64,000 nucleotides of DNA from Sphingorhabdus sp. EL138 (GTDB lineage: Bacteria; Pseudomonadota; Alphaproteobacteria; Sphingomonadales; Sphingomonadaceae), in contig NZ_CAMDCK010000010.1 of NCBI RefSeq assembly GCF_945890115.1, forward strand, positions 33,306 to 97,305, in the 5' to 3' direction. This document shows positions 21,778 through 63,203 of the stretch, piece by piece. Each line of letters begins with the position of its first letter. The stretch's first letter is position 1. Below the pieces are notes generated by a model, which saw only the letters and a list, made by a program, of their open reading frames with translations, ran no database searches and was not told the origin of the DNA. The translations under genes and the position numbers were made by a program.

Positions 21778-21961
21778 TCCAAAAATTCCGTCTCATGTCA
21801 TTCTTTAACAATTTTAGGGTGATATGTTCGGTAGAAGGGCATTCCAGCAATGAGGCTGGACTGTCATCGGGGCGCGAAAATGCCCCATCCGCGGCGGATC
21901 GGTATTTCCGCAACTCAAGAGGCCCCGCATCGCATTGGGCATGCGGGTCAAAGGAAAATCT

Positions 21962-24298
21962 ATGTTTAATACGAAAACTGTATCAATCGAGTGGGGCGGA
22001 CAAACCCTAACACTCGAAACGGGCAAAGTTGCCCGTCAAGCTGACGGCGCTGTTATGGCATCGCTTGGCGAAACTGTTGTGCTTTGCGCGGTTACCGCCG
22101 CAAAGTCGGTGAAAGATGGTCAGGATTTCTTCCCGCTCACCGTTCACTATCAAGAAAAATATTCCGCAGCCGGCCGTATTCCGGGTGGCTTTTTCAAACG
22201 TGAACGTGGTGCGACCGAAAAGGAAACGCTGGTTTCGCGTTTGATCGACCGCCCACTTCGCCCGCTGTTCCCAGAAGGTTTCTATAACGAAATCAACGCA
22301 ATTGCGCAGGTTCTTAGCTATGATGGCGAGAATGAGCCTGATGTATTGGCGCTTGTTGCTGCTTCGGCCGCAATGACCATTTCGGGCGTTCCATTCATGG
22401 GCCCCATCGGCGCAGCACGCGTGGGTTACCTGAACGGCGAATATATCCTGAATCCAACAGACGCGCAGGTTGCCGAAGGCGACCTCGATCTGGTTGTGGC
22501 CGCGACCTATGACGCGGTGATGATGGTGGAATCCGAAGCCAATGAGCTTTCGGAAGAAATCATGCTCGGTGCCGTCCTGTTTGCGCATGACGCATGTAAG
22601 GAAGTCGTTAAGGCAATCGTCAAGCTTGCAGAGCAAGCCGCGAAAGAGCCTTGGGCCATGGCTGAGCAGGCTGATTTGTCAGCCGCCAAGGATAAGCTGA
22701 AGAAACTTATCGGTAAGGATATTGCCGCTGCGTACAAGTTGACTGACAAGTCGGCACGTTCGAACGCTCTGAATGTCGCGCGTGCAGCGGCAAAGGAAGC
22801 TTTCACCGACGCAAGCCCGCAGGATCAGATGGCCGCAGGCAAGCTGATGAAGAAGCTGGAAGCGGAAATCGTTCGTGGCGCCATCCTGAAGGACGGCACG
22901 CGTATCGACGGACGTACCACAACGCAAATTCGTCCGATTCTGGCAGAAACGCATTTCTTGCCACGGTCACATGGTTCGGCGTTGTTCACCCGTGGTGAAA
23001 CGCAGACTATCGCAACCTGCACCTTGGGCACCAAGGACGCAGAGCAGATGATCGATGGCCTTGGTGGTTTGCATTATGAAAACTTCATGCTGCATTATAA
23101 CTTCCCACCGTACAGCGTTGGTGAAGTGGGTCGCTTCGGCGCACCAAGCCGCCGTGACATCGGTCATGGTAAGCTTGCATGGCGCGCGCTGCACGCCGTA
23201 CTGCCAACCAAGGACGAGTTTCCATACACCATCCGTATCACCAGCGACATTACCGAATCCAATGGTTCGTCGTCGATGGCATCGGTTTGCGGCGGAAGCC
23301 TTGCGATGATGGACGCTGGCGTTCCCATCAAGCGTCCGGTTTCGGGTATCGCAATGGGCTTGATCCTTGAAGGCAAGGATTTCGCCGTCCTGTCGGATAT
23401 CTTGGGTGACGAAGATCATCTTGGCGATATGGATTTCAAGGTAGCAGGTACATCTGAAGGCATCACCACGATGCAAATGGACATCAAGATTGCCGGTATT
23501 ACCCGCGAAATCTTTGAAGCTGCATTGAACCAAGCCAAGGAAGGCCGCGCGCATATCTTGGGTGAAATGGCCAAGGCATTGGGCGAAGCGCGCGGCGAAC
23601 TGTCCGCGCATGCGCCGCGTATCGAAACGATGCAGATCGACAAAGCGAAGATCCGCGACATCATCGGCACCGGCGGCAAGGTCATTCGTGAAATCGTCGC
23701 CACCACCGGTGCAAAGGTCGACATTGATGACGAAGGTCTCATCAAGATTTCATCGTCCGACATTGCGCAGATCGAAGCCGCGCGTAAGTGGATTTCGGGC
23801 ATTGTTGAAGAAGCAGAAGTTGGCAAGATTTATGACGGCAAGGTCGTCAATCTGGTTGATTTCGGTGCATTCGTAAACTTCATGGGTGGCAAGGACGGTC
23901 TCGTCCACGTCAGCGAAATGCGCAATGAGCGCGTTGAAAAGGTTACGGACGTCGTCAGCGAAGGCATGGACGTTAAGGTCAAGGTTCTCGAAATCGACCC
24001 ACGCGGCAAGGTGCGCCTGTCGATGCGCGTTGTGGATCAGGAAACCGGTGAAGAGCTGGAAGACACACGCCCGCCCCGCGAAAAGAGCGAGCGCAGCGAT
24101 CGTGGCCCCCGTCGTGAAGGCGGCGGTGGTGGACGCGGCGAAGGCCGTGGCGACCGTGGCCCGCGTCGTGACGGCGGTGGACGTGATGGCGGACGGGGCG
24201 AAGGTCGCGGCGACCGTGGCCCACGCCAAGACCGTTCAGAGGGCGAAAACAAAGGCGGGGGCGATCCCGACCATGTGCCAGCTTTCTTGAAGGATTAA
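21962..24298 (+). CDS. pnp: Polyribonucleotide nucleotidyltransferase (PNPase) with an Arg/Gly-rich C-terminal extension
   Basis: Starts at [13 protein letters not shown]. Has two RNase PH domains plus KH and S1, then an extra tail of about 85 aa. The track ORF starts at 21935. Confidence 0.96.
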
Positions 24299-29609: not shown

Positions 29610-29984
29610 CCCCGTCACCCCCTGAAAGTCGACCCCGGACAGTCAATCCCCGACCGTCACCCCCGGCCGTTACCCCTCCAACCGTCACCCTGAACTTGGT
29701 TCAGGGTCCATTTCTCGTCTCCACCCTTCGGTCTATGTGGCACGATGGATGCTGAACCGAGTTCAGCATGACGTTTGGGAGAAACTTGCTTTCTTATCAC
29801 CGTCGCCCTGAACTTGTTTGTGCTCTGCACGCCTACGGCTCCAGGGTCCATTTATAAGCCTAAAACTTCGGTCTATGTGGCACGATGGATGCTGAACCGA
29901 GTTCAGCATGATGTTGCGGGGAATGCACTTCTGCGCCTCTGCGTGAACCCTTTTTCGTCGCCCCAGCGCAGGCTGGGGCCTATC
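29610..29984. repeat. Dense REP/repeat cluster in the 504-bp ligA-phhA spacer
   Basis: C-run tract at 29610-29690. Palindromes at 29687-29707, 29749-29769 and 29889-29909. A 46-nt exact direct repeat at 29726-29771 and 29866-29911. A 29-nt REP2 copy at 29956-29984. Confidence 0.85.
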
Positions 29985-32689: not shown

Positions 32690-32934
32690 CGACGCTGCCT
32701 TTCACAGCGCAGATAAAATTTCAACTAAAGTTATCAGGGTCAGGACCACTTAAATTCACTTTCGAGGTTTGAGGCCATTTTGACGCCGCCACGGCGGATT
32801 TATCTGGTCCTGAGCTTAAACAAATTGGTTCGCCGATTGCGCGTTTCGCAATGCGCAGGTCTTGCAACACAGCATTAATCGGTTAATGAGCGTGGCAACG
32901 TCGAACGCTTGCAGATATGAAGGACGCTAAAATT

Positions 32935-33378: not shown

Positions 33379-33767
33379 TGGACAGTAGAACATATATCGG
33401 TCGCGTCCGCGGCCTGGGTTCGGCCAAGCATGGCGGCGAACATTGGCTGAAGCAGCGTTTGACCGCGATTGGCAATGTGTTGCTGACCACTTGGTTTGTG
33501 TTGTCTTTATTGATGATCCCAAGTTTTGACCATGCTGCGCTCGCGCAGTGGTTGGCGCAGCCATTGGTTGCGGTTCCCATGATCTTGATGATTGCCAATA
33601 TCTTTGCGCATGCCCGTTTGGGCCTTCAGGTGTTGATCGAGGATTATGTTCATGATGATGGCCTGAAATTTGCGGCCATGACATTATTGAACTTTTACGT
33701 CATCGCCAGCGCCGTATTCGGCATTTTCGTCGTCGCAAAACTCGCATTTACCGGAGCTCCCGCCTGA
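33378..33767 (+). CDS. sdhD: Succinate dehydrogenase hydrophobic membrane anchor subunit
   Basis: Starts at [23 protein letters not shown], with three TM helices. The ATG overlaps the sdhC stop. Confidence 0.88.
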
Positions 33768-35569
33768 TGTCAGACGCTTATAAGATTATTGACCACACAT
33801 ATGACACCGTCGTCGTTGGCGCTGGCGGGTCGGGTCTGCGCGCCACCATGGGCAGTGCGGAAGCAGGTTTAAAAACGGCTTGCATTACCAAAGTCTTCCC
33901 AACGCGTTCGCACACTGTCGCGGCGCAGGGCGGGATTGCCGCATCGCTGGGCAACAACTCGCCGGACCATTGGACCTGGCACATGTATGACACGGTCAAG
34001 GGCTCCGATTGGCTCGGTGACCAAGATGCCATCGAATATATGGTCCGTGAGGCACCTGCTGCGGTCTATGAATTGGAACATGCCGGCGTGCCATTCTCAC
34101 GCAACGCTGACGGCACTATCTACCAACGGCCATTTGGCGGGCATATGCAGAATATGGGCGAAGGCCCTCCGGTTCAGCGAACTGCCGCTGCCGCCGACCG
34201 TACTGGTCACGCGATGTTGCATGCTTTGTATCAGCAAAGCCTGAAATATGACGCGGATTTCTTCATTGAATATTTCGCCCTCGACCTCATCATGGAAAAT
34301 GGCGAATGCCGTGGCGTGATTGCCATGTGCATGGAAGATGGCAGCATTCACCGGTTTAAGAGCCACGCAGTCGTGTTGGCAACCGGCGGCTATGGCCGCG
34401 CGTATTTCTCCGCAACGTCGGCGCATACCTGCACCGGCGATGGCGGCGGCATGGTCTTGCGCGCTGGCCTGCCATTGCAGGATATGGAATTTGTTCAGTT
34501 TCACCCAACGGGTATTTATGGCGCTGGCGTTCTCATCACCGAAGGCGCACGCGGCGAGGGCGGTTATCTAACCAACAGCGAAGGCGAACGCTTTATGGAG
34601 CGTTATGCGCCATCTGCTAAGGATTTGGCATCACGCGACGTGGTCAGCCGCTCTATGGCGCTTGAAATGCGCGAAGGGCGCGGCGTTGGCGAGCATAAGG
34701 ACCATATTTACCTGCACCTCGATCATATCGACCCTGCGGTATTGGCACAGCGTTTGCCCGGCATCACCGAAAGCGGCAAGATTTTCGCAGGCGTTGACCT
34801 GACTCGGCAGCCGCTGCCCGTGACGCCAACCGTTCACTATAATATGGGCGGTATTCCGTGCAATTATCATGGCCAAGTCGTCAATAAGGTCGGCGACGAT
34901 CCCGAAGTCATCGTACAGGGCCTCTATGCCGTTGGCGAAGCCGCCTGCGTTTCGGTGCATGGCGCAAACCGTCTGGGTTCAAACTCACTGATCGACCTTG
35001 TCGTATTTGGCCGGGCAACGGGCTTGCATTTGAAGGCATCACTGACTCCCGGCGCGCCGCATAAGGCGTTGCCAGCAGACGCGGCAGACCTCGCACTGGC
35101 GCGTGTGGACAAGTTCCGCAATGCAAAGGGCGGATCACCCACCGCCGAGATCCGTTTGCAAATGCAGCGCACGATGCAAAAGCACGCTGCCGTGTTCCGC
35201 GACACTGCCTTGTTGGAAGAAGGCGTGGTTGAAATGCAGAAGGTCAATCAGCGTCTCGCCGACGTGCGCGTGACCGACCGTAGCCTGATCTGGAATACCG
35301 ACCTTATCGAAACGCTTGAGCTCGATAACCTGATGGCACAGGCGGTTTGCACAGTCGAAAGTGCAAACAACCGCAAGGAAAGCCGCGGCGCCCATGCGCA
35401 CGAAGATTTCCCCGAGCGCGACGATGCCAATTGGATGAAGCATACGGCGTCATGGTTTGACGGTTGGGGCGGTTCTGGCGGTAAGGTCACAATCGACTAT
35501 CGCCCAGTGCATGATTATACCTTGACCGATGATGTCGCGTATATTAAGCCGAAGCCACGGGTGTATTGA
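33767..35569 (+). CDS. sdhA: Succinate dehydrogenase flavoprotein subunit
   Basis: 600 aa. Contains [11 protein letters not shown], the covalent-FAD site [10 protein letters not shown], and the C-terminal ...KPKPRVY. Confidence 0.97.
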
Positions 35570-35598
35570 GGGTTCGATAGCGGGAACCGCAGAGGATA

Positions 35599-35704
35599 CG
35601 TCGCCCCAGCGCAGGCTGGGGCCTATCCCGCTTTTCAGTGTAGCGCCTTGGATCGCGGTGTAAACCGATAGGCGCGATAGGCACCAGCCTGCGCTGGGGC
35701 GACG
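35599..35704. repeat. Inverted pair of the 29-nt REP2 element (long hairpin) downstream of sdhA
   Basis: CGTCGCCCCAGCGCAGGCTGGGGCCTATC at 35599-35627 and its reverse complement (1 mismatch) at 35676-35704, separated by 48 nt. Confidence 0.85.
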
Positions 35705-35716
35705 GTGGGTTGATGG

Positions 35717-36009
35717 CTATCTGTTCAGGTCTTCATACAAGTCCCGCCAATCGGGGTTAGCCCTGCTTATCAACTCTGTTTTCCATCGGCGCTTCCAAAC
35801 CTTCATGGCTTTTTCGCGGTTGATGGCGTCTTCGATGTCATCAAAAGCTTCATAATAGACCAAAATCTTACAGCCATTTTCTTTACAGAATTTGGAGCCT
35901 AGGTCGCTCTTATGCGCCCAAATCCGGCGCGGGAGGTTGGCGGTCACGCCGATGTAGAGCGTGCCGTGCGGGCCGCTGGCATGATGTAGACATATCCGCC
36001 CTTCGCCAT
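35717..36009 (-). pseudogene. GIY-YIG nuclease family gene (COG2827-like), disrupted by a 1-nt frameshift near codon 10
   Basis: The ATG at 36009 gives MAKGGYVYIM and then runs out of frame to a stop. The frame shifted by 1 nt continues ASGPHGTLYIGVTANLPRRIWAHKSD...WKRRWKTELI...NPDWRDLY (track ORF 35717..35947). One base appears to be missing between 35980 and 35981. Confidence 0.75.
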
Positions 36010-36023
36010 CAGATAAGCTCCCA

Positions 36024-36052
36024 CGTCGCCCCAGCGCAGGCTGGGGCCTATC
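36024..36052. repeat. REP2 29-nt element, direct-orientation copy flanking the GIY-YIG gene
   Basis: Identical to the 29-mers at 29956 and 35599, and inverted relative to 35676-35704. Confidence 0.85.
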
Positions 36053-36115
36053 ACCTAGTGAAGGCTTGCACGATGATTGTGGGCTTGCGCGGCAAAGCCT
36101 AATTAGCCCACCCCG

Positions 36116-37102
36116 TTATGGCCGCGCAAAAACTTCCGCCGTAATCTCCAAACTTCGCTTGCGCTTTTCATGGTCGAATACGGAGCAAGCGACGATGATT
36201 TCGTCGGCCTGTGTTCGCGCCTGAAACGCTTGCACCGCCGATTTAACCGTGTCCGCTGCACCAATCGCGCTGGCGGACAGAACATCATGCAGCGCCGATG
36301 CAAAATGCGGGGGAAGCGAGGCGACAAAGCCCTCCACCGGTGGCGGCAATTGGCGCGGGTTGCCGGTGCGCAGCGCAACGAAGCTTTGCATCATTGAACT
36401 GGCCAGATATTCGGCCTCCGCATCGGTGTCGGCAGCGATGATGTTGAACGCGGCAATCGCATGCGGCGCGTCCAGCACGGCGCTTGGGCGGAAATGGCTG
36501 CGGTAGATGTGCAACGCCTCATCCAACATTTGTGGCGCAAAGTGGCTGGCGAAGGCGAAGGGCAGGCCCAAGGCTGCCGCAACCTGCGCGCCATATAGGC
36601 TGCTGCCCAAAATGTAGAGTTGGACATGGGCGCCTGCACCGGGCGTAGCGACGATACCCGTTTTACCATCATCGGCGAAATAGCTTTGCAATTCCATTAC
36701 GTCGCGCGGAAATGCATTGGGATCGCTATCGAGCGTTCGCCGGATCGCGGCGGCGACGCGCTGGTCACTGCCCGGAGCGCGGCCAAGCCCCAGATCAATC
36801 CGGCCCGGATAGAGCGCGTCCAACGTGCCAAACTGTTCGGCAATGACTAAGGGGGAATGGTTGGGCAACATGATGCCGCCTGAACCAACGCGCATGGTCT
36901 TGGTCGCCGCCGCAATATGCCCGATGACAACGCTGGTCGCGGCACCGGCAATGCCGCGCATGCCATGATGTTCGGCAACCCAATAACGTGTGAAGCCAAG
37001 GTTTTCGGCATGCGCCGCAAGATCAGCCGCATTGGACAGCGCGCTTGCGACCGTTCCGCCTTCCACAACAGGCACTAGATCAAGAAAAGAGAAGGATGTC
37101 AT
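36116..37102 (-). CDS. LLM-class flavin-dependent oxidoreductase (luciferase-like, group 1)
   Basis: 328 aa. Contains [12 protein letters not shown]...[20 protein letters not shown]. Confidence 0.9.
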
Positions 37103-57794: not shown

Positions 57795-58068
57795 GGGCAG
57801 GAACACTGAAAGCCACGAAGGTGGATTTAAGTGGTCCTGACCCTAAGCGGCGTCGCTAATCCCAAGGTAGAGACGTTTTTAACGTAAACTCTGTCACCCA
57901 TTTGCAGTCATGTCCGGCTGCTATGCGGATCCTCCAACTGGGGGTGGTACCGCAAATAGGTAAAGAGCTAATTAAGCAGTCATGATATTTTCTTTGTTCA
58001 TCGTGCTTGAGCATTGGAAAATCACCAGTTAAGGCGGTGGCGTAACATTGTTTTACTCGGAGGCTGTT

Positions 58069-58203: not shown

Positions 58204-59334
58204 ATGGTGAAAATTGCTGTCCTGAGGGAAACCACCCAAGGCGAAACGCGCGTTTCCGCATCACCTGAAACCGTCAAGAAATTCATCGCGCTTGGCGCGA
58301 CGGTTTCAGTCGAGAATGAAGCAGGCGCAGGGGCGTCCATTGGTGATAGCGATTATGCAAATGCCGGTGCTTCCGTTGGAAATCTGTCATCGGTGCTTAA
58401 AGACGCAGACATTGTTCTGGGTGTTCAAGGACCAGACCCTAAGGCGTTGAAGGGTATGAAGTCCGGCGCTTGGCTTGTGGCGGGGCTTGACCCCTTTGGC
58501 CAGCGGGCACGGGTGGATGCCTATGCTAAGGCTGGCGTAGAGGCGCTGGCGATGGAATTCATGCCGCGCATCACGCGTGCACAGTCGATGGATATATTGT
58601 CGTCGCAGTCGAACCTTTCCGGCTACAAAGCTGTTATTGAGGCGGCGTCGGTCTATGGCCGCGCCTTTCCAATGATGATGACTGCTGCTGGTACGGTCAG
58701 TGCCGCAAAGGCTTTCATCATGGGTGTGGGCGTTGCCGGGCTACAAGCCATTGCTACAGCGCGTCGTTTGGGCGCGCAGGTTTCGGCTACAGACGTGCGT
58801 TCCGCCACGAAGGAACAGATTGAATCCTTGGGTGCAAAAGCGATCTTCGTTGAGAATGTCGCCGGTATCGAAGGCGAGGGCGCTGGCGGTTACGCAACCG
58901 AAATGTCGGACGAATATAAAACAGCGCAAGCCGAATTGGTCTCCGCGCATATCGCCAAGCAGGACATCGTCATTACAACGGCGTTGATTCCGGGCCGTCC
59001 GGCACCGCGTCTGGTGTCCGACGCGCAAATCGCAAGCATGAAGCCAGGCTCCGTCATTTTCGACCTTGCCGTTGCGCAAGGCGGCAATGTCGAAGGGTCG
59101 AAGGCAGATGAGATCGTCATCAAACATGGCGTTAAGATTGTCGGTTACAGCAACACGCCAGCACATTTGGCGGCGGACGCATCGGCGCTCTATGCGCGCA
59201 ACCTGTTCAATTTCCTGTCCGCTTTTTGGGACAAGGAAGCTGGTATGCCGGTTTTGCCTGATGACGACGAAATTACCGCAGCAATTCGCCTGACCAAAGA
59301 TGGCAAGGTCGTGAATGAACGGCTTATGTCGTGA
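58204..59334 (+). CDS. pntAA: NAD(P) transhydrogenase subunit alpha part 1 (dI)
   Basis: 376 aa. Alanine-dehydrogenase/PNT N-terminal domain and Rossmann motif MGVGVAGLQAIATARRLGA. Confidence 0.95.
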   Translation: MVKIAVLRETTQGETRVSASPETVKKFIALGATVSVENEAGAGASIGDSDYANAGASVGNLSSVLKDADIVLGVQGPDPKALKGMKSGAWLVAGLDPFGQRARVDAYAKAGVEALAMEFMPRITRAQSMDILSSQSNLSGYKAVIEAASVYGRAFPMMMTAAGTVSAAKAFIMGVGVAGLQAIATARRLGAQVSATDVRSATKEQIESLGAKAIFVENVAGIEGEGAGGYATEMSDEYKTAQAELVSAHIAKQDIVITTALIPGRPAPRLVSDAQIASMKPGSVIFDLAVAQGGNVEGSKADEIVIKHGVKIVGYSNTPAHLAADASALYARNLFNFLSAFWDKEAGMPVLPDDDEITAAIRLTKDGKVVNERLMS

Positions 59335-59516: not shown

Positions 59517-59548
59517 GTGATAGGCATAGGTCTGGCTAGGAACAAAAT

Positions 59549-59999
59549 CCTCCCCTTCTGGGGGCGGTGGCAGCGCGAAGCGCTGACGGAGGGGGCCTGA
59601 AATGGAAGACCACACCCCAGAAGCTCTGATACTCGCTCGCAAATTACGCGGCGAGATGACTCTGCCGGAAGTTTTGCTGTGGCGTTTGCTAAAAGGCAAG
59701 CCGATGGGCTTGAAGTTCCGCAAGCAGCACCCGATCGAAAATTTCGTGTTGGATTTCTACTGCGTCCAAAAGGGCATAGCCATCGAAGTTGATGGCATCG
59801 CCCACGACATGGGCAATCGCCCCGAACGTGATGCCAGTCGGGACGCAAAGCTCCGCGCCTTGGGCATTGAAGTTATTCGTGTCCCTGCCGCCGATGTTTT
59901 GCGCGACGTTGAAAATGCTGCTGATGCCATCGGGCGCCTTTGTACCGATAGACCCCCACCGTCAGCCCTTCGGGCTGCCACCTCCCCCAATGGGGGAGG
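59549..59999. mobile_element. DUF559 endonuclease cassette bounded by 49-nt imperfect inverted repeats, inserted between pntAA and pntAB
   Basis: The left arm (59549-59597) and the reverse complement of the right arm (59951-59999) are identical at 41 of 49 positions. Each arm contains an internal hairpin. Confidence 0.6.
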
Positions 60000-60021
60000 A
60001 TTTACTGGAGCTCACTTATAA
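59602..60021 (+). CDS. DUF559 (Vsr-like fold) endonuclease-domain protein
   Basis: 139 aa. Contains ARKLRGEMTLPEVLLWRLLKG...KFRKQHPIENFVLDFYC...IAIEVDGIAHD...LGIEVIRV. The C-terminal 23 aa are translated from the right inverted repeat. The TAA overlaps the pntAB ATG. Confidence 0.85.
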   Translation: MEDHTPEALILARKLRGEMTLPEVLLWRLLKGKPMGLKFRKQHPIENFVLDFYCVQKGIAIEVDGIAHDMGNRPERDASRDAKLRALGIEVIRVPAADVLRDVENAADAIGRLCTDRPPPSALRAATSPNGGGFTGAHL

Positions 60022-63113: not shown

Positions 63114-63203
63114 GGAGAGATGGCTGAGTGGTCGAAAGCACCGCACTCGAAATGCGGCGTGCCGGTGACGGTACCTAGGGTTCGAATCCCTATCTCTCCG
63201 CCA
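63114..63203 (+). tRNA. tRNA-Ser (anticodon CGA) with encoded CCA
   Basis: Acceptor stem GGAGAGA/TCTCTCC. Anticodon stem CCGCA/TGCGG with loop CTCGAAA. Long variable arm. T-arm TAGGG-TTCGAAT-CCCTA. Confidence 0.95.

Follow-up and report, generated by a model that had tools for sequence, protein, structure and literature searches.

Why should a small nuclease gene that has lost its reading frame stand between inverted copies of a 29-nucleotide (nt) repeat, directly behind sdhA? The question is raised by a 64,000-nt stretch of DNA from Sphingorhabdus sp. EL138 (contig NZ_CAMDCK010000010.1, positions 33,306 to 97,305 of the forward strand), the whole of which we call the window; all coordinates count from its first letter. 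The gene encodes a GIY-YIG protein and the repeat is the 29-mer CGTCGCCCCAGCGCAGGCTGGGGCCTATC. To judge from sequence, the two very probably make up an Ssn-type system, that is, a gene for a GIY-YIG nuclease of one domain and the CGTC-tagged hairpin repeat cognate to it, on a freshwater Sphingorhabdus-like chromosome. We put the probability of this at roughly 0.85. Ssn nucleases are single-domain GIY-YIG enzymes that cut single-stranded DNA (ssDNA) just 5' of CGTC-tagged hairpin repeats (NTS/SRM), and the gene for the enzyme usually has such repeats on its flanks (Chenal et al. 2025, Nat Commun 16:2388, PMC11893778). The association of these nucleases with hairpin repeats is thus already known; several decayed alleles of the gene and three structural alleles of the locus are new. 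The features are as follows.

35717..36009, minus strand: ssn-like GIY-YIG nuclease gene, a pseudogene here (PF01541 match, translations, 97% identity to the intact protein P0001)
35980..35981, minus strand: frameshift site, one G missing (alignment with the related contigs L001 and L002)
36024..36052, plus strand: repeat copy upstream of the gene, 14 nt before the start codon, CGTC head towards the gene
35676..35704, minus strand: repeat copy, right arm of the doublet after sdhA, 12 nt after the stop codon, CGTC head towards the gene
35599..35627, plus strand: repeat copy, left arm of the same doublet, beginning 30 nt past the sdhA stop
35599..35704, no strand assigned: heads-outward, REPIN-like doublet of 106 nt with a 48-nt spacer, folding as one long ssDNA hairpin
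29956..29984, plus strand: further exact repeat copy, between ligA and phhA, with no adjoining nuclease gene

What does the gene encode? On the minus strand it runs from an ATG at 36009 to a stop at 35717-35719, comprising 97 codons once one G is restored. Codons 1-10 (36009-35980) read MAKGGYVYIM, as the original prediction, made from the letters of the window alone, had said. The remainder, ASGPHGTLYIGVT...LNR, follows in the +1 frame to the stop at 35719-35717; the next frame, entered at 35980, gives ASGPHGTLYIGVTANLPRRIW...EDLNR before it stops. The read-through protein matches the Pfam GIY-YIG domain (PF01541, E = 1.2e-12, residues 5-77) and no other domain, in agreement with the small GIY-YIG gene that had been proposed. 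It is a single-domain GIY-YIG protein of 97 amino acids (aa), under the 150-aa limit of the Ssn family, and is 97% identical to P0001, an intact protein of the same length. The columns of Y8, Y19, R29, H33, E66 and N85 are invariant in 13 homologues, Y6 being the exception among the core residues; we take the spacing of these residues to be that of the GIY-YIG catalytic core as in I-TevI. When the protein was searched against NCBIfam, the only match was sub-threshold, to a group I intron endonuclease model (17 bits, with a cutoff of 56). SsnA of N. meningitidis is likewise a single GIY-YIG domain, of 94 aa (CDD cd10448; PMC11893778).

How is the repeat built? Exact copies of the 29-mer lie on the plus strand at 29956, 35599 and 36024 and a copy with one mismatch on the minus strand at 35676-35704; all of these coordinates had been predicted and all are correct. 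By chance no copy is expected in the window (none in 100 shuffles). The repeat has an unpaired CGTC head, an 8-base-pair (bp) stem (GCCCCAGC/GCTGGGGC), a 4-nt GCAG loop and a CTATC tail, and a single hairpin has a folding energy, as ssDNA, of -10.6 kcal/mol. At 35676-35704 one stem pair is broken in the window (CCCC opposite GGTG) and intact in L001 (CACC/GGTG). The copies at 35599 and 35676 do form the hairpin that had been described directly after sdhA, and its arms reach 44 nt at 86% complementarity; the folding energy of this doublet as ssDNA is -50.7 kcal/mol (z = -9.9). The partner arm of the copy at 29956, some 44 nt further on, has decayed. The minus-strand copy at 35676 and the plus-strand copy at 36024 bracket the gene, are 97% complementary and leave 319 nt between them.

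Is the 29-mer a genuine repetitive extragenic palindromic (REP) element, as was suggested from its four copies? A genome scan, with one genome per species and the variable positions of the pattern left free, found it at no fewer than 115 loci, nearly all of which, among those listed, belong to Sphingorhabdus or other Sphingomonadales. The stem covaries among 140 copies (CC/GG 48, AC/GT 40, TC/GA 38) and the loop is GNAG. With up to five substitutions allowed, at least 230 copies were counted in 851 kb of related loci. Of these, 194 pair up as 97 heads-outward doublets, and in 67 doublets the spacer measures 28 nt; heads-inward pairs number ten, and tandem pairs are absent. Copies in such number, with a covarying stem, mark the 29-mer as a REP-type element.

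How closely are gene and repeat associated? In the window and in the related loci L001, L030 and L088, the gap between the start codon and the closest repeat upstream is 14-21 nt, that repeat being in minus orientation with respect to the gene; beyond the stop, the closest repeat follows after 12-39 nt and is in plus orientation. The gene therefore has a CGTC head turned towards it at either end. L109, in which only the 3' end of the gene is present, has the same downstream repeats. Metagenome contigs, scanned for relatives of the protein, yielded 80 loci (51-98% identity), 78 of them with at least 100 nt on both sides. At 62 of these 78 loci the gene has a CGTC- or TGTC-headed hairpin within 150 nt of each of its ends, at 12 of one end and at 4 of neither. 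The density of CGTC hairpins is 8.25 per kb within 150 nt of the gene as against 0.12 per kb beyond 400 nt, a difference of about 67-fold. Moreover, the stem tracks the protein clade: GCCCCAGC at 83-98% protein identity, mostly GCCCCTGC at about 60-64%, and ATTCCGGC, ATGGCCCGC or ATCCCGCGA at 51-58%. A directional CGTC-headed hairpin thus stands on both sides of the gene and is also dispersed through the genome, which is the Ssn architecture.

In the other direction the link is sparse: a homologue of the protein occurs in only 3 of at least 115 repeat-bearing loci, among the matches listed. The association therefore runs from gene to repeat and not the reverse. The original prediction was right in taking the association of nuclease and repeat as real, recurrent and distinct from RAYT/REP; its newness is another matter, since the class had been published as Ssn/SRM (PMC11893778). 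Narrow literature searches (GIY-YIG with repetitive extragenic palindromic; COG2827; DUF559) returned nothing relevant, and the Ssn paper emerged with broader terms.

Can the window gene be assigned to the Ssn family? On its architecture and by transitive homology it very probably can. By protein sequence, the published family is delimited by a blastp match to N. meningitidis SsnA (CAX49033.1; E < 1e-10, at least 75% coverage) and by cd10448 as top CDD hit (PMC11893778). The published SRM pattern is HGTCWYN(0-2)YYVSBRHN(0-5)WNVSBRGN(0-2)RNCYNB, to be found within 500 bp of the gene on both sides, and 71% of ssnA homologue loci have SRMs, 42% on both sides (PMC11893778). Matches to this pattern lie on both sides of the orthologue at L122 (69% identity, same synteny) and of a homologue at L120 (60% identity), and the pattern is also met at L121; the homologues P0108 and P0033 (60-69% identity) are flanked by such matches.

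Several observations weigh against this assignment. The SRM pattern has zero matches in the whole window, the 29-mer failing at its first stem base, G where A or T is required. The closest solved structures in a sequence search of the PDB are UPF0213 proteins (1zg2, E = 8.5e-7; 1ywl, E = 7e-4), which belong to a different GIY-YIG subfamily, and no Ssn structure was among the matches of that search. Many of the 78 metagenomic loci are near-duplicates, so the counts given above overstate their independence. Finally, the enzyme activity of this clade is presumed from that of the characterised enzymes, which also counts against the reading. On the first of these points, one G-C pair is enough to hide a whole repeat family from the search pattern; the published figures of 71% and 42% are therefore probably underestimates.

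If the gene belongs with its repeats, does it also move with them? The original prediction regarded it as one of a recurring class of REP-associated nuclease cassettes, with the copies at 35676 and 36024 as terminal inverted repeats. An autonomous cassette with the inverted 29-mers as its ends, like an insertion sequence (IS) or a homing endonuclease gene, would agree with the 97% complementarity of these copies and with a presence/absence polymorphism lying exactly between repeat heads (L072 is without the gene). Chenal et al. also remark that the NTS-ssnA-NTS layout resembles an IS (PMC11893778). Against this, a comparison of about 14 related loci, of the kind the prediction had called for downstream of sdhA, found the gene at one conserved site with the same neighbours: every homologue that is at least about 69% identical and has enough flank stands convergent with sdhA, between the 3' end of that gene and a luciferase-like gene. 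In the homologue loci the last 200 residues encoded by sdhA are 73-100% identical to those of the window. The two bracketing repeats belong, as arms, to two different doublets, no target-site duplication was seen at the outer ends, and the protein is without a DNA-binding domain beyond the nuclease domain; the rarity of homologues among repeat-bearing loci argues in the same direction. We therefore consider a mobile cassette very unlikely. The two copies do bracket the gene, but hardly as the ends of a mobile unit.

What, then, is the meaning of the locus without the gene? L072 is a Sphingorhabdus metagenome-assembled genome, about 90% identical to the window in the sdhA region. It lacks the gene and exactly one doublet; what is left is a doublet, the spacer and the single repeat. 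Recombination between the direct doublets on either side of the gene would be expected to yield just this product, and the structure is consistent with such an event. The more distant L030, L088 and L122 have the gene at this site, and its absence from L072 is therefore a loss; L072 is nested among gene-bearing lineages, its nucleotide identity in the sdhA region being about 90%, compared with about 79-80% for L030 and L088. The other two structural alleles differ upstream of the gene. In L001, L002 and L129 the order is doublet, gene, second doublet, 37-nt spacer, single repeat. The window and the JGI metagenome contig L125 are without the 143 nt between two identical 31-mers (CACGTCGCCCCAGCGCAGGCTGGGGCCTATC), the repeat at 36024..36052 being the junction of this deletion relative to L001 and L002. 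The window haplotype has lost these 143 nt of its upstream repeat array by recombination between the 31-mers. The flanking repeats thus drive local deletions, with three structural alleles as the outcome.

The ratio of nonsynonymous to synonymous substitution rates (dN/dS) among the intact orthologues is 0.02-0.25, and these are therefore under purifying selection. We conclude that ssn is in this clade a resident, vertically inherited gene, much as RAYTs are, fixed in place rather than jumping, yet repeatedly lost or broken. Membership among homing endonuclease or IS-like cassettes was rejected on account of the single conserved locus, the separate doublets and the single domain; a transposon bounded by terminal inverted repeats was rejected because the locus is fixed and its repeats are organised as doublets.

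Is the break in the window gene real? The original prediction placed the loss of one base at 35980/35981, where the window reads ATCATGCCAGC and closely related contigs read ATCATGGCCAGC. The deletion falls after codon 10 and cuts off the GIY strand (Y6, Y8, the first beta-strand) from the YIG tyrosine Y19 and from R29, H33, E66 and N85. The residues of the catalytic core (GIY and YIG tyrosines, Arg, Glu) are all encoded in the window DNA but are split over two frames; the core is not united in one polypeptide, which makes the window copy an Ssn-family pseudogene. Assembly often produces single-base indels as artefacts, and the close relatives do have the extra G. The metagenome contigs L001 (ENA) and L002 (JGI), about 99% identical to the window over the locus, read ATCATGGCCAGC and encode the intact 97-aa P0001, the gene order of L001 being the same as that of the window from the luciferase-like gene to phhA; L129 and run X6 (DNA) also carry the intact allele. 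Yet when the assembled contigs of public runs, as distinct from raw reads, were compared, those of run X1 (DNA) and of runs X4 and X5 spanned 35980/81 with the deletion and without an indel relative to the window. These were assembled independently, X4 and X5 being metatranscriptomes of other samples with contigs that differ from the window at 2-3 single-nucleotide polymorphisms. L125 has the frameshift as well as the 143-nt deletion. Frameshifted and intact alleles are found in independent contigs. The window gene holds up as a pseudogene; that sequencing or assembly introduced the break into an intact gene is highly improbable. Both alleles exist in lake populations, and the frameshift is recent.

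Other alleles of the gene also differ from the intact form. All three substitutions between the window (35717-36009) and L001/L002 (in L001, 1508-1801) are amino-acid changes (W31S, K45E and R83S, window to L001). Seven further intact orthologues, including L129, were compared and have W31 and R83; the 'intact' allele of L001 departs from them at both positions and may therefore be drifting as well. L183 (598-884) has a 1-nt deletion at about codon 57, reading GACACATCG where GACGACATCG is expected, and in L138 (1501-1704) the gene breaks off after codon 68, where unrelated sequence takes over. As L183 and L138 are short metagenome contigs, errors, assembly artefacts or chimeras are possible in both.

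Could gene and repeat be neighbours by accident? The gene is flanked on one side by sdhC, sdhD and sdhA (33767-35569) and on the other by genes for a luciferase-like monooxygenase, a LysE transporter and an FMN-dependent dehydrogenase. As noted originally, no sdhB was found downstream of sdhA in the gene order of the window; the repeats, the GIY-YIG pseudogene and these three genes stand there instead. REP-type repeats might pile up between convergent genes irrespective of any nuclease. Most copies do lie far from any GIY-YIG gene, and the doublet after sdhA could be a 3'-end hairpin of the sdh operon. Chance of this kind is, however, hard to credit: of the four copies in the 64 kb of the window, three are no more than about 0.9 kb away from the gene (Poisson P about 3e-5), the enrichment of hairpins beside homologues and the match of stem to protein clade recur across loci, and four such enzymes have been published as cutting their own flanking repeat (PMC11893778). 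A promoter and terminator scan of 35400-36300 gave nothing above shuffle expectation. At Rfam gathering thresholds nothing was found at the repeats, the sole match being a tRNA at 63114-63200.

Least credible of all is that the frameshifted locus still yields a useful product, whether a dead, repeat-binding protein (76 aa from a GTG at 35947, N-terminally truncated and catalytically dead) or a full-length one made by ribosomal frameshifting: metatranscriptome contigs X4, X5 and X10 cover the locus and tyrosine mutants of N. meningitidis SsnA retain ssDNA binding (PMC11893778), but the RNA contigs are without strand information and may include DNA, the 76-aa open reading frame (ORF) is without the first beta-strands of the fold and both tyrosines, there is no slippery run at ATC ATG CCA, and the different lesions of other lineages (L183, codon-57 frameshift; L138, 3' truncation; L072, deletion) point to simple decay. 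For want of a slippery site, and in view of those independent lesions, programmed frameshifting was rejected.

Does the window hold a second example of the arrangement? A DUF559 gene (PF04480, Vsr-like, 139 aa) at 59602-60021, between pntAA (58204-59334) and pntAB/pntB, had been offered as another nuclease gene between long inverted repeats. The inverted repeat exists: arms of 54 nt at 59545-59598 and 59950-60003, 85% complementary, bracket the gene, and the right arm falls within the ORF, at its 3' end. In the approximately 0.9 Mb of loci compared, neither arm behaves as a dispersed repeat, which gives no support for counting the gene in the same REP-associated class. As a dispersed REP this inverted repeat was rejected, since in those loci its arms occur solely at that gene apart from one 34-nt partial match, at L093 6093-6126, 42 nt upstream of another DUF559 gene. 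The DUF559 arrangement may be a parallel phenomenon.

Several other repeats were seen. The ligA-phhA region contains, at 29680-29925, a cluster of canonical CGTC-tagged REPs. These include a copy at 29683 (CGTC ACCCTGAAC TTGG TTCAGGGT CCA) and an inverse partner at 29745-29773 (CGTC ATGCTGAAC TCGG TTCAGCAT CCA), and the cluster comprises an 82-nt direct repeat (29702-29783 and 29842-29923, 84%). They form a second CGTC family, with 9-bp stems and with no cognate nuclease gene in the window; related CGTC heads lie at 279, 21755 and 29802. The two arms of a 35-nt inverted repeat, AGGGTCAGGACCACTTAAATTCACTTTCGAGGTTT and its complement, are 89% complementary and 25 kb apart (32736-32770 and 57810-57844); both are intergenic, one upstream of sdhC and one after a DUF2177 gene, and the element is a short dispersed repeat. 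Within the polynucleotide phosphorylase gene (21935-24298), at its 3' end, two tandem-like direct copies of 46 nt (24127-24232), 83% identical and 60 nt apart, encode the repeated Arg/Gly-rich C-terminal tail of that enzyme.

In related loci the 29-mer has A-T stem variants, CGTCACCCCAGCG.AGGCTGGGGTCCAT and, with a CCA tail, CGTCACCCCAGCGAAGGCTGGGGTCCAT. The exact core of the Neisseria-type NTS, CGTCATTCCCGCGAAGGCGGGAATCCAT, was found six times in the Sphingomonadales loci fetched for the 29-mer (L003-L117). Several CGTC repeat families therefore coexist in these Sphingomonadales genomes, and perhaps several Ssn specificities do also.

How might such a system work? SsnA binds CGTCATTCCCGCGMAVGCGGGAATCYRG solely as ssDNA, on one strand, and cuts just upstream, and four Ssn homologues each cleave their own repeat as ssDNA on the 5' side (PMC11893778). 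In the scheme that we propose, ssn is fixed between sdhA and the luciferase-like gene, between two doublets and with a CGTC head facing each of its ends. By analogy with the enzymes of Neisseria, N. elongata, N. wadsworthii and Wolbachia, the intact protein would recognise the GCCCCAGC hairpin in ssDNA, on one strand only, and would nick it a few nucleotides 5' of the CGTC head. The predicted cut sites would lie in the 12-14 nt gaps at the two ends of the gene, on opposite strands, which would make this geometry unfit for same-strand excision of the IS200/IS605 kind. The substrate would presumably be repeat-bearing ssDNA, such as incoming transforming DNA or intermediates of replication and repair. 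Possible roles would be the restriction of such DNA on entry, or the creation and maintenance of the repeats themselves.

With which known systems should the locus be compared? UPF0213 proteins of the YhbQ type (PDB 1zg2, 1ywl) are also small single-domain GIY-YIG proteins but form a different, SLX1-related subfamily, and we know of no association between them and flanking repeats. The CGTC-tagged REPs of family CGTC-1 resemble the 29-mer in their unpaired CGTC tag, 8-bp stem and 4-nt loop; across the whole class, stems have 8-9 bp and loops 4-5 nt. They resemble it also in being dispersed as inverted dimers, as are 194 of the at least 230 copies counted here. The resemblance ends with the stem and tail: theirs almost always begins with A/T pairs and is followed by CCA, while the stem of the 29-mer begins G-C, C-G and its tail is CTA. 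CGTC-tagged REPs are mainly alphaproteobacterial, extragenic and mostly in inverted pairs, and, unlike GTAG REPs, have no dedicated or associated transposase (Di Nocera, De Gregorio & Rocco 2013, BMC Genomics 14:522, PMC3733652).

The likeness to RAYT/REPIN systems is one of behaviour. There too a single-copy nuclease gene at a fixed locus is inherited vertically and is flanked by a hairpin repeat that is dispersed through the genome as inverted doublets, and in lineages from which the nuclease gene is lost the repeats outlast it, at least temporarily. The ssn locus is nevertheless not one of them, having a GIY-YIG enzyme and a CGTC tag in place of an HUH/Y1 (IS200/IS605-like) transposase and a GTAG tag. 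It is possible, though in our view unlikely, that Ssn creates or maintains CGTC-tagged REP doublets and so serves as a GIY-YIG counterpart of RAYT/REPIN; to our knowledge no strand-transfer (joining) activity has been found in Ssn enzymes, and mobilisation of repeats by them is hypothetical. If the idea is correct, GCCCCAGC doublets should be in decay in lineages without ssn: in comparison with sister lineages that have it, copies should be scarcer, stems more often broken and recent identical copies absent. The co-occurring null alleles of freshwater Sphingorhabdus (codon-11 frameshift, codon-57 frameshift, 3' truncation and gene deletion) would then be a ready-made test. Strains with and without ssn, living side by side, could reveal the role of Ssn outside Neisseria and in the maintenance of CGTC repeats.

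The closest likeness is to the Ssn/NTS systems. The Neisseria NTS has the form CGTC-ATTCCCGC-GMAV-GCGGGAAT-CYRG (PMC11893778), and the 29-mer shares with it the CGTC head, an 8-bp stem, the loop (GCAG fits GMAV) and the tail (CTA fits CYR). The stems themselves differ, GCCCCAGC in the window as against ATTCCCGC in Neisseria, the first pair in the window being G-C. Both have a GIY-YIG protein with one domain and about 95-100 aa, a directional hairpin repeat on either side of its gene and many further copies of that repeat across the genome, and in both, different protein clades go with different stems. Here the gene stands between two heads-outward doublets, whereas its more distant homologues have one repeat per side, heads outward. 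The host is a free-living freshwater sphingomonad, the window gene is a pseudogene and the activity of its intact relatives would follow by analogy. An association of nuclease and repeat that could be found from raw sequence is thereby extended to a free-living freshwater sphingomonad.

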